Positions 44,154 to 51,362 are shown, counted from the first letter of the stretch. The stretch is 64,000 nt of DNA from Escherichia coli (GCA_902500055.1 GCA_902500055.1_4131.1), one strand, 5' to 3'. A program made the numbers and translations. Notes: generated from the sequence alone by a model not told the origin.

Positions 44154-44525
44154 TTATGACATACGCTTATTATGAATGGAATTATGAATGGATTTTAAAT
44201 AATTATATAATTTTATCAATCCACTACCAGTAGCTACAAACAGTAGTGCTGTTGGTATCATACATCCAAACATGGTTATTAATTCATGTATTTCCATACC
44301 ATCACTATTTGGTCCCACATCAAATATAACAACCAAAACAACACCTAAAATGCTTAGACAATAATATCCCATAAAGACCATAAAAGTGATATATCCGGCA
44401 CTTGATTTAATATTAGATAACATATTATACACTGGATTAATACAGAAGAAGTATAATAACCATACCAGTGTTCCAGTACTGAACATAATAATTGAAATAA
44501 TGGAAAATATCTCACGGTAACTCAT
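44154..44525 (-). CDS. family D small polytopic membrane protein
   Basis: ORF track 123 aa; multiple hydrophobic helices. Confidence 0.6.
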   Translation of the reverse strand: MSYREIFSIISIIMFSTGTLVWLLYFFCINPVYNMLSNIKSSAGYITFMVFMGYYCLSILGVVLVVIFDVGPNSDGMEIHELITMFGCMIPTALLFVATGSGLIKLYNYLKSIHNSIHNKRMS

Positions 44526-44526
44526 A

Positions 44527-44889
44527 TTATTTCCTCATACCCAAACGTTGGTGGATTTCAGAGATCTTTATATACAATAGTACCACAAGGTGCAGTACTA
44601 AACAACATATAATTACGGCTAATACCAATGAACATATCATAAGACCGAAGGTTATTGTATTCAAAGAGGATGTGAACAGTCCAATTATTAATACAATAAA
44701 ACCAAAATTGAATACTGTACCCAACACAGTATATGCTGGACTATATCTCTTTTGGATTACATCATATATATTTGATAATGGTCGCTTATGGAAGTACTTC
44801 CCAATGCACACGAATGCATTCAGTGAGAAGATAAATGTATACGCCATTACTAGTAATTGACCAACGAAAGATAATTCTATCCCGTTCAT
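44527..44889 (-). CDS. family D small polytopic membrane protein
   Basis: ORF track; start trimmed to Met22; hydrophobic helices. Confidence 0.6.
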   Translation of the reverse strand: MNGIELSFVGQLLVMAYTFIFSLNAFVCIGKYFHKRPLSNIYDVIQKRYSPAYTVLGTVFNFGFIVLIIGLFTSSLNTITFGLMICSLVLAVIICCLVLHLVVLLYIKISEIHQRLGMRK

Positions 44890-44890
44890 A

Positions 44891-45259
44891 CTAACCTCGT
44901 TTACGTTTTTTAATTGTACTGTGCATCTTTTCGAAATAGGGAACCAAAACATATTGAACAGTTTGCCAGATAACCATTAGATTATGCACTGCACCACCAA
45001 GGATACCAAACACTAGAACAATAATTGCCATAATAGGATCACCGTCTACCATACCCCATTTAAAGATATGTAAAATCCAAGCAATGACTAGACAAAATAA
45101 ACTAAGCCAATACGTAATGAAAAATCCGGCTTGTAGTTCATAATCATCAGCAATTTCATCGTATACCGTTTCTAAAAATGATACACAAAAGAATTTACCA
45201 ATTATAACCACAGTACTAATAAACAACATAGCAGTTAAGATAATAAGAGCAATTTCCAT
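44891..45259 (-). CDS. family D small polytopic membrane protein
   Basis: ORF track 122 aa; C-terminal basic tail KKRKRG. Confidence 0.6.
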   Translation of the reverse strand: MEIALIILTAMLFISTVVIIGKFFCVSFLETVYDEIADDYELQAGFFITYWLSLFCLVIAWILHIFKWGMVDGDPIMAIIVLVFGILGGAVHNLMVIWQTVQYVLVPYFEKMHSTIKKRKRG

Positions 45260-45573
45260 TACATCCCTCGTTTACGCTTTTGATTGCGTCTAAATTCTGT
45301 TAGTCCACGGCTAATCGGCGGCATCAGACTACATAAAAAAGTAACAGTTGTTGGTAGTAACATCAAGTCAATCATTGCAGTGTTATCTGGTGGATCAAAA
45401 ACCAAAAAATACACACAAGAAACACTAATAATGGTTGAACCGATAAAAGGAATACAAAATTCTTTTATCTGTTTTTCAACATAATCAAACATCTTGAGTA
45501 CAAATAAAAATCCAACCCAACACATAATGAAATAGAATGAATACAACGTGTAAATCAATGTTACTATATCCAT
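45259..45573 (-). CDS. family D small polytopic membrane protein
   Basis: ORF track 104 aa; C-terminal tail RRNQKRKRGM. Confidence 0.6.
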   Translation of the reverse strand: MDIVTLIYTLYSFYFIMCWVGFLFVLKMFDYVEKQIKEFCIPFIGSTIISVSCVYFLVFDPPDNTAMIDLMLLPTTVTFLCSLMPPISRGLTEFRRNQKRKRGM

Positions 45574-45911
45574 TAGTACCTCGCATCAGGAACTTTAGCA
45601 CGTAACTTATGAACGACTGGGAACAACAACAAACTTACATATGCAATAGTTGAACCCCAATAGAATACTAATACAATTGGTTCACCATTAGAACGGAAAC
45701 CTCTACTAATCATTGAGTAGTGAATAATAGGCATAATCATCGCCATACCAAACCATGCGTGTAATTTTAATTGCAGCATGTTATCAGCGATGAATACTGA
45801 AATTGGTCGTTTAAAGAACCACATCAGAAAGTAGAATCCAGCACTAATAATATAGTACATGGTACTAACTTTCATATACCACGGCAGTAAATCAATAAAG
45901 TACTCCATCAT
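45573..45911 (-). CDS. family D small polytopic membrane protein
   Basis: ORF track 112 aa; FFKRP after TM, C-terminal KVPDARY. Confidence 0.6.
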   Translation of the reverse strand: MMEYFIDLLPWYMKVSTMYYIISAGFYFLMWFFKRPISVFIADNMLQLKLHAWFGMAMIMPIIHYSMISRGFRSNGEPIVLVFYWGSTIAYVSLLLFPVVHKLRAKVPDARY

Positions 45912-46255
45912 TCCTCCGGTATCTTATTTCGAAGTTCAATCATAACACAACAAATTTTAATGGTCAATATAAAAGTTAAACATATCATCCCAAGTGTGCC
46001 GTAAACTGCGGAAAAAGCTGGTAGTACCTTTCCTGTGAGTGTTGCTACAATACATGCAATCAATGTTGATGCAAACAACGATTGATTAATGGCAGAATTC
46101 ATAAAATCTTCACCATTACGTTTATAGAATTGTCGTTTAAAATACCATCCTAGAAACATAACTACCCAAAATGATACATAAGTTGTTAGAATAATCCCTG
46201 CAAGTGAATGTGCAACTGAACTACTCCTTAAAAACTCAAGATAAGCTTCAAACAT
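45908..46255 (-). CDS. family D small polytopic membrane protein
   Basis: ORF track 115 aa; YFKRQ, C-terminal RNKIPEE. Confidence 0.6.
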   Translation of the reverse strand: MFEAYLEFLRSSSVAHSLAGIILTTYVSFWVVMFLGWYFKRQFYKRNGEDFMNSAINQSLFASTLIACIVATLTGKVLPAFSAVYGTLGMICLTFILTIKICCVMIELRNKIPEE

Positions 46256-49606: not shown

Positions 49607-49682
49607 GGTAGTTCCTCGATTGTAGGGATGAGAAGTTCATCCCCTTGATAAGCATTATACAGTACTGAATGTGTTTGTCAAC

Positions 49683-50078
49683 TCAAAATAAATTCATTTC
49701 ATGTGCGTATTGTGGTTCAAGATAAGATAAGTTTTTGAAACTGTCTTTCAATTCCGCATCATCTACGTACACAGTACCAGGTACATTCCCCATAGTGAAG
49801 CCAACCCAAACAGTCATGTTTCCAGTTCCTAAGCGGGGCATTGATAGCGTCCCGTCAGGTGAAACATCAAACGCTACACTAAAGTCATCCGTTACAACTT
49901 CCGACCCATTTTCCAGAATAATACAACCACGTTCTTTAAGCTTCTGAATGTGGATAGCAGCCTCTACAGCACGTTTAAAGTTATAATAAGACTCTTTATC
50001 CTCGAACATTGATTGTTTAACCAGACGCTTGTTTAGCTCGGTTACTTTGTGCATTTGACGCATTACTTCAACTCCCAC
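49683..50078 (-). CDS. hypothetical protein
   Basis: ORF track 131 aa. Confidence 0.55.
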   Translation of the reverse strand: MGVEVMRQMHKVTELNKRLVKQSMFEDKESYYNFKRAVEAAIHIQKLKERGCIILENGSEVVTDDFSVAFDVSPDGTLSMPRLGTGNMTVWVGFTMGNVPGTVYVDDAELKDSFKNLSYLEPQYAHEMNLF

Positions 50079-50317
50079 AGTTGTAGAATTTCATAAGAGC
50101 CTGGTGGTGCTGGATTGATAATCTCAGGGTATTCAGTACTGTTAGGATTACCACCAGCATTGAACTCAGCAAGTAATAATTCGAGTTCATTCCTATCATG
50201 AACAACAAACACGCAATATCCAGTTCCTTCTTCAAGAACTGTAGTTGATCCCGCACAATCCCATACGGTATCAATACATAATAATTCTTTAGTGTTTTTA
50301 TTACGCAACGCAAACAT
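50063..50317 (-). CDS. hypothetical protein
   Basis: ORF track 84 aa; AGGAGA RBS; preferred over overlapping 50068-50481 frame. Confidence 0.55.
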   Translation of the reverse strand: MFALRNKNTKELLCIDTVWDCAGSTTVLEEGTGYCVFVVHDRNELELLLAEFNAGGNPNSTEYPEIINPAPPGSYEILQLWELK

Positions 50318-50326
50318 ATATGTCTC

Positions 50327-50695
50327 CTATCGATTCGGCATATTCTTTCGTAGTCGCAAGAGAAATTCAACCACTGACCATGTTGTAATGAAGGCAATAT
50401 AAGTTGCAAGGAATCCAGTAAGAATAAATGCAACCAGCGTACTACCATTTGGGGAATCAGTTTTAATGCCGATGACACCATCGGCTACAGTGAAACATGT
50501 AGCCATTAATGTGTAACCTACGTACAACACAAAGAAAAACTCATTCTCCATTGAAGGATAGAAACGGTTAAACACTTTATAAAATTTAAAGTACAGTAGG
50601 ATTATACCAACAAAGGCATAGAATGTAAACAGTGTTGTTATAATATATGAGATTAGGTTCAAATTATACATATCAACGCTCCGGTAGATTATCAC
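50327..50695 (-). CDS. family D small polytopic membrane protein
   Basis: ORF track 122 aa; C-terminal RLRKNMPNR. Confidence 0.6.
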   Translation of the reverse strand: MIIYRSVDMYNLNLISYIITTLFTFYAFVGIILLYFKFYKVFNRFYPSMENEFFFVLYVGYTLMATCFTVADGVIGIKTDSPNGSTLVAFILTGFLATYIAFITTWSVVEFLLRLRKNMPNR

Positions 50696-51020
50696 GTAAT
50701 GTTTTAATTCGATGATACATTTTCATACCAATATTACCAAAGATACCATATCCAAGTACTAAAATGTATGCAATAAGCATAGTAATAATTACTATAGTGC
50801 CAAAACTATAATGTACACTACTGATACCCATTGTAGTTTCAACGATTATTTGAGAAACTGAAAGAATCAAAAGTACAACTACAATTGGATGATTTGGGTA
50901 CATTCGGTTGAACAACGTTTTGTACTTAAAGAAGCACAGTACTCCACCGAATAAGAAGTAAACAATGTAAATGCAAGCAACAGCATAGGCAAACATGTTA
51001 GTGTAATAAATCATTTCCAA
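50673..51020 (-). CDS. family D small polytopic membrane protein
   Basis: ORF track 115 aa; C-terminal LRDNLPER. Confidence 0.6.
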   Translation of the reverse strand: MEMIYYTNMFAYAVACIYIVYFLFGGVLCFFKYKTLFNRMYPNHPIVVVLLILSVSQIIVETTMGISSVHYSFGTIVIITMLIAYILVLGYGIFGNIGMKMYHRIKTLRDNLPER

Positions 51021-51023
51021 TCC

Positions 51024-51362
51024 TTACTTTTCAGGGATATTAGAACGCCATATATCAATGCGATGAACTAGTCCAAAGAACAACCATACTGGAACGGCAG
51101 CTATCATAACAACAAATGAAAACCCAGTCAACACCGATACCAGATTTAATTCATCAGTACTATACCCACATATCAGTACTTCTAATATTCCCCACGTACA
51201 TGCACAAAACATCAAGAATGAAATTGGGGCATCATAGTAGATACGTTCATATAAAGTAGTATATCGGAAGAATGCAATAATATAGCAAAACATATAATAC
51301 ACCCAAACCAAAGATACTACATAAAATGATACTTTGTTTATTAATTCAAAATATTGTTCCAT
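51024..51362 (-). CDS. family D small polytopic membrane protein
   Basis: ORF track 112 aa; C-terminal WRSNIPEK. Confidence 0.6.
   Translation of the reverse strand: MEQYFELINKVSFYVVSLVWVYYMFCYIIAFFRYTTLYERIYYDAPISFLMFCACTWGILEVLICGYSTDELNLVSVLTGFSFVVMIAAVPVWLFFGLVHRIDIWRSNIPEK

Follow-up and report, generated by a model that had tools for sequence, protein, structure and literature searches.

Ten Small Membrane Protein Genes in Two Clusters

The sequence analyzed here, referred to as the window, is a stretch of 64,000 nucleotides (nt) from an Escherichia coli assembly (GCA_902500055.1 GCA_902500055.1_4131.1), and the element in question is an array of ten genes for small membrane proteins that occupies two clusters between positions 44154 and 51362. 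The window belongs to a jumbo coliphage of the genus Asteriusvirus (the 121Q/PBECO4/G17 group). Its segment from 44000 to 52000 matches Escherichia phage vB_EcoM_CRJP21 over 100% of the length with 96.9% identity and also matches the 121Q/PBECO4/G17/phAPEC6 group of the same genus, jumbo myoviruses of ~350 kb. All ten open reading frames (ORFs) were found at the positions given for them in the original prediction, a list of features compiled earlier from the same DNA. All are on the minus strand, with seven at 44154-46593 (cluster A) and three at 50327-51362 (cluster B). In the order of transcription, cluster A runs m7-m6-m5-m4-m3-m2-m1, with neighboring genes overlapping by 1-4 nt or lying 1 nt apart, and cluster B, which is preceded by a gene for a 93-amino-acid (aa) protein, runs m10-m9-m8. 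The ten genes are as follows, with TM standing for transmembrane helices (predicted) and the diagnostic motif and C-terminal tail of each protein given in parentheses.

46255-46593, minus strand: m7, first gene of cluster A; 112 aa, 3 TM, subfamily I (WYFKKK ... RDKIRGDF), PHROG 19454
45908-46255, minus strand: m6; 115 aa, 3 TM, subfamily I (WYFKRQ ... RNKIPEE), PHROG 19046
45573-45911, minus strand: m5; 111-112 aa, 3 TM, subfamily I (WFFKRP ... LRAKVPDARY), PHROG 27396
45259-45573, minus strand: m4; 104 aa, 3 TM, subfamily II (tail FRRNQKRKRGM), PHROG 33258, the weakest family link
44891-45259, minus strand: m3; 122 aa, 3 TM, subfamily II (GKFFCV ... MHSTIKKRKRG), PHROG 26405
44527-44889, minus strand: m2; 120 aa, 3 TM, subfamily II (GKYFHKR ... 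IHQRLGMRK)
44154-44525, minus strand: m1, last gene of cluster A; 123 aa, 3 TM, subfamily II (YFFCIN ... IHNSIHNKRMS), PHROG 27618
51024-51362, minus strand: m10, first family gene of cluster B; 112 aa, subfamily I (AFFRYT ... WRSNIPEK), PHROG 19285
50673-51014, minus strand: m9; 113 aa from the ATG (115 aa from a TTG at 51020), subfamily I (CFFKYK ... LRDNLPER), PHROG 19285
50327-50671, minus strand: m8; 114 aa from the ATG (122 aa from a GTG at 50695), subfamily I (LYFKFYK ... LRKNMPNR)

The encoded proteins are 104-123 aa long; the wider range given previously, 104-141 aa, included an over-extended m2 of 141 aa. The length of m2 is set at 120 aa because a GAGG Shine-Dalgarno sequence precedes the ATG at 44889, and the 120-aa form is the one annotated in phage G17. 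The G17 annotation of m8 corresponds to the 114-aa form.

A Single Paralogous Family

At the level of sequence profiles, the ten ORFs are paralogues that make up one family. Pairwise BLASTP and phmmer comparisons were significant only among m8, m9, and m10 and for the m1-m10 pair (m9-m10, E = 1e-9), which is too weak to serve as the sole proof of paralogy, so iterated and leave-out hidden Markov models (HMMs) and hhalign were used instead. A single MAFFT alignment of the ten proteins has no invariant column except Met1. The iterated HMM searches, with one seed for each of m1 to m10, were run on 524 pooled ORFs that begin with ATG and are ≥70 aa long, taken from the window and seven related phage loci. 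Nine of the ten seeds converged on the family: eight recovered exactly the ten window ORFs, and the one from m5 found nine of these (72 ORFs in total, m4 being absent). The m4 seed retrieved only its own orthologues. The converged family comprises 83 ORFs in 8 related loci, all located within the two clusters of the respective phage. Among the 257 ORFs of the window that were scored with the family HMM, the ten members received 70-94 bits (m7, 79.9 bits) and the next best ORF 9.4 bits. Other small membrane ORFs of the window, such as the one at 48584-48835, were ignored by this HMM, so hydrophobic composition alone cannot account for the signal.

HMMs built after leaving out one orthogroup at a time found all ten members again, with E values from 3e-11 to 9e-3 (m3, 3e-11; m1, 4.6e-11; m8, 7.4e-10; m6, 1.3e-8; m7, 5.2e-6; m9, 6.7e-6; m10, 6.4e-5; m2, 7.6e-5; m5, 7.9e-4; m4, 9.3e-3); the best non-family ORFs in these tests scored 5.8-10.6 bits. 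The weakest members were m4 (11.3 bits) and m5 (14.8 bits), whose own orthologues reach E values of 7.6e-8 and 2.3e-10, respectively, and the family link of m4 depends mainly on these orthologues. Comparison of the orthogroup profiles with hhalign produced a connected network with two subclades, one formed by m5-m10 (m8-10 to m6, 90.6% probability; m6 to m5, 95.3%; m8-10 to m7, 61.7%) and the other by m1-m3 (m1 to m3, 77.6% over 115 columns; m3 to m2, 61.1%), with m4 as the least connected member. The PHROGs database spreads the same proteins over seven families (19285, 19454, 19046, 27396, 33258, 26405, and 27618), and a PHROGs search gave no match for m2. The earlier description of the genes as a diversified family thus agrees with the HMM searches, which recover exactly the ten, and with a divergence that is faster than that of the neighboring genes (see below).

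Membrane Topology and Domain Design

The family profile contains three hydrophobic segments (approximate profile positions 9-28, 48-66, and 80-102), with Lys and Arg residues concentrated after the first of them and at the C terminus. In the ten window proteins, 67 Lys and Arg residues fall into the predicted cytoplasmic loop 1 and the C-terminal tail, compared to 11 in the N-terminal tail and loop 2, 3 of which belong to the spurious extension of m2; by the positive-inside rule, this distribution indicates an N-out/C-in orientation. The array proteins are accordingly described here as having three predicted TM helices, with a short N terminus that would be periplasmic. Three TM helices (TMHMM and Phobius) are also listed by the depositors of the phage GAP32 record for the syntenic array genes, and the supplementary table of the phage CBB paper gives three by TMHMM for their counterparts (PMC5259590). 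In the AlphaFold models, m6 has helices at residues 2-45, 58-80, and 83-111 (mean predicted local distance difference test score [pLDDT], 70.5) and m1 at residues 3-27, 29-39, 43-67, and 76-122 (pLDDT, 77.2). The predicted template modeling scores (pTM) of 0.46-0.47 make the helix packing in both models unreliable.

These results bear out the claim that the proteins are membrane embedded, given the three hydrophobic helices and the strong positive-inside bias, and correct their proposed layout of two N-terminal and one or two C-terminal helices, as the profile shows three and the AlphaFold models show three long ones. The (W/Y)(Y/F)FK(R/K) motif that was reported to follow helix 2 does exist; it follows helix 1, and its strict form is confined to m5-m7. 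In its general form, an aromatic residue followed by Phe and Lys/Arg, it lies at the cytoplasmic end of helix 1, and all 44 non-redundant sequences carry the Phe. The presence of a basic C-terminal tail is likewise confirmed; it comes in two types: R-x-x-[ILM]-P-x-[RK] in subfamily I (m5, m6, and m8-m10, with the divergent RDKIRGDF in m7) and H/R-x-x-x-basic, ending in RKRG or RM, in subfamily II (m1-m4). Within the orthogroups, fractional identity is 0.49-0.54 in the N-terminal tail, TM1, loop 1, and the C-terminal tail versus 0.32-0.39 in TM2, loop 2, and TM3. As judged by this conservation pattern, the array design consists of a constant part and a variable hairpin made of TM2, the predicted periplasmic loop, and TM3.

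Distribution, Synteny, and Copy Number

The comparisons provide good support for an old, tandemly duplicated family that is restricted to RaK2-like jumbo phages. When 1.84 billion representative proteins were searched exhaustively with a profile, 26 clusters were returned, all of 89-127 aa; word-indexed searches returned 19 and 16 proteins; the database matches that were checked are Asteriusvirus genes or genes on similar metagenomic contigs. A broadened profile of 75 sequences gave fewer matches than the narrow one because the profile was diluted. In phage RaK2, eight members recognized by the family HMM (E values of 1e-5 to 1e-13) follow the gene for an ATPase similar to T4 NrdC.10, and an array with weaker matches follows the ATPase gene in Salmonella phage Munch, GAP32, and XbC2. 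Members from Mimasvirus were matched weakly, with E values of 1e-11 to 0.5 that refer to small databases. One metagenomic contig (L009) carries twelve members in a single run. Within Asteriusvirus, cluster A consists of 7-8 genes and cluster B of 1-3, and the total across phages ranges from ~5 to 12; with copy number this variable, additive modules are a better fit than a fixed complex.

Phages Turkey5 (with an additional duplicate of m4) and A4 have preserved the order m7-m6-m5-m4-m3-m2-m1, and it is nearly preserved in RaK2, where orthologues were found for m1, m3, m4 (E = 1.6e-12), m5 (E = 2.2e-19), m6, and m7. The best-kept paralogue across phages is m5, with 52-67% identity to Turkey5 and A4. 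This collinearity across genera implies that the duplications predate the split of the genera and that each lineage has been retained since; the preserved order also suggests that the paralogues are non-redundant. Two irregularities were seen within arrays. Contig L009 (4614-4742) and Munch (L012, 8781-8909) each have a called mini-ORF of 42 aa at a similar position, and one CBB member is split into fragments of 62 aa and 53 aa (CBB_540/541). The CBB array is known from published tables alone.

Individual genes of the array have been present in databases as hypothetical or "putative membrane" proteins; here they are recognized as one old, collinear, fast-evolving family. The CBB paper mentions unnamed paralogues (PMC5259590). 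The genes GAP32_522-527, CBB_539-545, and RaK2 ORF309-316 are homologous or syntenic counterparts that match the array in protein size, in the number of TM helices (three), and in their place after an nrdC.10-like gene; their annotations go no further than hypothetical or membrane protein, and the papers searched do not group them as one paralogous array. The literature searched contained no account that treats the set as a single family or describes its array structure, early promoters, cross-genus collinearity, or constant and variable design, and searches for publications on the family, on Asteriusvirus transcriptomes, and on NrdC.10 function found nothing relevant.

Divergence and Selection

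Array members are 25-67% identical to their Turkey5 and A4 counterparts (25-45% without m5), compared to 50-99% for most of the neighboring genes; the 220-aa gene flanking cluster A is as diverged as the members (33% identity). Comparison with A4 and Turkey5 by blastn shows no similarity over most of the arrays. The ratios of nonsynonymous to synonymous substitution rates (dN/dS) are 0.03-0.57 for the members and 0.03-0.55 for their neighbors, values by which the array genes are under purifying but loose constraint.

A reading of the arrays as ancient alleles with recently shared flanks was toned down, because nucleotide identity to A4 and Turkey5 has a baseline of only 67-81%. The central block, which is 87-94% identical to these two phages, looks like a separate recent exchange. 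The region between the clusters also contains an unrelated 83-aa membrane protein (48584-48835, minus strand) that is 96-100% identical in all six phages compared, including Turkey5 and A4, the two in which array members show only 25-67% identity; it matches no PHROG or Pfam family. Its gene lies within a block (48173-49681) with 94% nucleotide identity to A4, compared to a background of 67-78%.

Promoters and Transcription Units

The strict promoter pattern TTGACA-N16-18-TAnnnT has 28 matches (24 sites) in the window, all of them on the minus strand, compared to 5.0 ± 2.4 expected from shuffles. All but one of the sites are located within 4.8-23.3 kb or 46.6-64 kb (overall span, 4810-63991), and many have extra GTACT elements that directly follow the -35 hexamer and directly precede the -10 hexamer. 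The elements that bear on transcription of the array are as follows.

46623-46651, minus strand: cluster A promoter, sigma-70 type, TTGACAGTACT...GTAGTACTAT, located 29 nt ahead of the m7 GGAG ribosome-binding site and ATG
51683-51711, minus strand: cluster B promoter, sigma-70 type, TTGACA-17-TATTCT, ahead of the 93-aa gene and then m10-m9-m8
51365-51646, minus strand: gene for the 93-aa soluble protein (PHROG 37917), leader of the cluster B transcription unit; its stop codon is 2 nt before the m10 start
44124-44147, strand not assigned: hairpin directly past the m1 stop, with a 10-bp stem, ATCCAGTACT-loop-AGTACTGGAT

The cluster A promoter, which sits between the stop codon of the ATPase gene and the ribosome-binding site of m7, is conserved in G17, Turkey5, and WPEC3 and has a single -35 substitution (TTGACG) in ph0011; in Turkey5, it is kept although the coding sequence there is beyond detection by blastn. 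The cluster B promoter is conserved in G17, UE-S1, ph0011, and Turkey5. In RaK2 and metagenomic contig L009, the array lies close behind the ATPase gene, with no evident pair of sigma-70-type hexamers before the first member. The hairpin past m1 is annotated in G17 as a minus-strand terminator; its role for the array is uncertain because its T-run is on the plus strand.

From their gene spacing and promoters, both clusters appear to be tightly packed transcription units behind early-class promoters of the host sigma-70 type, and promoters of this class imply that the array proteins are probably made within the first minutes of infection. The CBB authors, on in silico grounds, placed the syntenic array at the end of the presumed early region (PMC5259590).

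Two near-identical terminator-like hairpins of the form AAAAGG(G)TTGACT...CCTTTT, at 47471-47498 and 52388-52413 on the minus strand, have a TTGACT -35 sequence within the stem and a -10-like box after it. Their layout suggests composite elements, terminator and promoter in one, that sit between early transcription units.

Neighboring ATPase Gene and Other Loci

The gene at the head of cluster A, one of those that separate the two clusters, was initially described as encoding a ParA/MinD-like ATPase.

46661-47434, minus strand: NrdC.10-like P-loop ATPase (PHROG 1250), the conserved upstream neighbor of the array in all RaK2-like phages examined and a marker of synteny

Its Walker A string, GKGGVGKT, resembles the ParA type. 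The homologues, found in ~1,300 phage records, are of the T4 NrdC.10 type, and the ParA/MinD assignment is replaced here by this one: Pfam yields only AAA_16 at 21 bits (cut-off, 32.6) and no ParA/MinD match of the CbiA/AAA_31 type, PDB sequences yield no match, and PHROG 1250 is of unknown function. No such array is present in the one T4-like locus inspected, that of RB27.

The window ATPase is 94.9-98.4% identical to its copies in WPEC3, JNE01, CRJP21, ph0011, UE-S1, and Turkey5 and 59-60% identical to those in G17, 121Q, PBECO4, and A4, whereas the adjoining cluster A is 95-100% identical to that of G17. By these identities, the ATPase exists as two deeply diverged alleles within Asteriusvirus, and there is a recombination breakpoint at the head of the array. 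At the same ATPase/array junction, G17, ph0011, and UE-S1 have an eighth, m7-like paralogue that is not present in the window (46593-47434 compared with 5593-6770 of the G17 locus, L001).

Downstream of the array, A4 (L003, 20110-20661), RaK2 (L011, 11054-11650), GAP32 (L014, 9549-10172), and CBB (CBB_547) encode a DUF1190 (YgiB-like) protein with a lipoprotein-type N terminus; in the window, this place is taken by a 220-aa protein (43449-44111, PHROG 34359). Convergent with cluster A, on the plus strand at 41038-43468, are genes labeled "regulator of chromosome condensation" or "DNA condensation protein" (RCC1-like repeats) in related records, and Munch has five RCC1-like genes in a row at the same place. 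Farther away, at 58448-59955 on the minus strand, signal-peptide proteins of 116 and 119 aa, which share the string IVxxDGxxYxF, alternate with multi-TM proteins of 125 and 108 aa and are followed by a 79-aa membrane protein (60016-60255, minus strand). None of these belong to the array family.

Comparison with Known Families

Family searches covered Pfam (at E ≤ 1), NCBIfam, PADLOC, PDB sequences, and PHROGs. For the array proteins, nothing above noise was found in the first four, every PHROG match has either no assigned function or the label "membrane protein," and fold comparison gave no informative match. Subthreshold matches to Wzy, SUR7, DUF350, DUF443, PycTM, and MscS were treated as compositional. 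The CBB table carries no mass-spectrometry mark on any array gene (PMC5259590), so the array proteins do not appear to be virion components.

Proposed Function

With a rough probability of 0.4, the array proteins may act as early modifiers of the cell envelope in the host inner membrane, with superinfection exclusion or host takeover as the outcome. Under this proposal, the paralogues would be small modifiers of the envelope. Insertion, orientation, and perhaps a shared cytoplasmic contact would depend on helix 1, the cytoplasmic loop, and the C-terminal tail; the membrane target would differ from paralogue to paralogue and would be bound by the fast-evolving hairpin of TM2, the periplasmic loop, and TM3. 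The likeliest result would be exclusion or envelope takeover, achieved by blocking DNA entry of competitors or by disabling host membrane proteins; cell lysis is an unlikely outcome.

The nearest functional parallels are small polytopic inner-membrane phage proteins that act at the envelope. T4 Imm, an early product, has two TM helices. P22 SieA blocks DNA injection at the inner membrane, and its sequence types are less than 30% identical (PMC10883804), a divergence that parallels that of the array. Both differ from the array in being encoded by single genes rather than in 5-12 copies, and Imm has two TM helices rather than three. Array proteins have no Pfam match to any exclusion family, and the profile search that returned 26 clusters gave no Imm or SieA homologue.

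Several observations weigh against an envelope-modifying role. The timing of expression rests on promoter consensus, and the topology is derived from hydropathy and the positive-inside rule, with AlphaFold models of moderate confidence (pTM as given above). All dN/dS values are below 1, with no signal of positive selection at the whole-gene level; the fast divergence may reflect weak constraint on TM helices, and the conserved interfacial aromatic and basic residues, together with the basic tail, could be purely topogenic. The long collinear retention of each paralogue also fits a role in the phage's own cycle.

A related proposal, considered doubtful, is that the array is a battery of intramembrane immunity proteins, the variable hairpins of which would neutralize membrane-permeabilizing effectors through helix-helix binding. 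Each hairpin would plug or sequester one target, such as a pore former of a host abortive-infection system, a TM effector of the CBASS or Pycsar type, a competitor's holin, or a pore-forming colicin. Many diverged, probably early 3-TM inner-membrane proteins that vary in copy number and carry a variable hairpin on a constant scaffold would suit this purpose. The colicin E1 immunity protein is 113 aa long and has 3 TM helices; its reported orientation differs from the one predicted for the array. Immunity proteins against pore-forming colicins are similar in size and helix number, and their specificity, which resides in the TM helices, would suit a variable TM2-TM3 hairpin; the array proteins have no sequence or fold relation to them or to any defense component. 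The PADLOC match of m7 to PycTM (E = 0.026) is non-significant, at noise level, and probably compositional, and the lack of detectable positive selection also speaks against an arms race of this kind.

The members could instead be subunits or anchors for the phage's own cycle; on this view, they would build a platform in the membrane that serves replication, prohead assembly, or DNA handling, perhaps jointly with the NrdC.10-like ATPase. The retention of each lineage in order from Asteriusvirus to RaK2, the constant synteny with the ATPase gene, the purifying selection on all members, and the conserved cytoplasmic motifs agree with such a platform, which is nevertheless improbable: cluster B varies from 1 to 3 genes within a total of ~5 to 12, one CBB member is fragmented, and few genes of the region evolve faster than the members. 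The variation in copy number and the independent recombination of the ATPase do not fit a fixed hetero-oligomeric machine. A functional tie between the ATPase and the array was weakened by the wide occurrence of the ATPase, the RB27 locus that lacks an array, and the independent recombination of the two; the window combines an ATPase allele that is 59-60% identical to that of G17 with a cluster A that is 95-100% identical, which makes their tight coadaptation unlikely.

Among the three roles suggested in the original prediction, that of a holin or antiholin proved the least compatible with the data; superinfection exclusion and defense evasion are compatible candidates. Class I holins, such as lambda S and P22 gp13, are ~105 aa long and have three TM helices, the N-out/C-in orientation, and a basic cytoplasmic C-terminal tail. 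The array proteins, at 104-123 aa, share all these traits, at least as predicted, and no holin is mentioned in the published texts on CBB, Sharanji, and phAPEC6, so some members might time lysis together with a signal-anchor-release endolysin. Control of lysis is nonetheless decidedly improbable. No holin family was matched in Pfam, even at E ≤ 1, or in NCBIfam; the genes are present in ten copies in conserved order, have early sigma-70-class promoters and early-type neighbors such as a protein kinase, and lack a convincing dual-start motif. No annotated lysis gene is found within ~10 kb of the arrays in eight annotated loci, and, unlike class I holin genes, the array is not next to endolysin or spanin genes. 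For this phage group, the endolysin (the homologue of 121Q gp532) is reported to lie elsewhere in the genome (PMC5259590), far from the array genes, 207-232 in 121Q.

Finally, the array might consist of largely dispensable, drifting ORFs that are kept by duplication and recombination and have no specific function, as the very fast divergence, changes in copy number, possibly topogenic conserved residues, and the fragmented CBB copy would allow, but this is very improbable, given reading frames that are intact in all phage genomes and metagenomic contigs examined, dN/dS values of 0.03-0.57, the persistence of the invariant Phe and the tail motifs across genera, collinear orthologues shared between genera, and preserved ribosome-binding sites and coupled starts.

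Implications

The picture that emerges is one of RaK2-group jumbo phages that commit 5-12 probably early genes to a single family of very small inner-membrane proteins; this family has no relative elsewhere among ~15 billion predicted proteins. Even if the function of this family turns out to be mundane, its definition tidies the annotation of ~3% of the genes in the region across the phage group. If its members do act as intramembrane immunity proteins, they would represent a membrane-level counter-defense repertoire made in the first minutes of infection. The family definition also provides a target for testing early envelope functions, namely, exclusion of competitors, neutralization of membrane defenses, and host takeover. 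Such functions are poorly understood in large lytic phages, and they matter for the phage therapy cocktails in which these phages are used.

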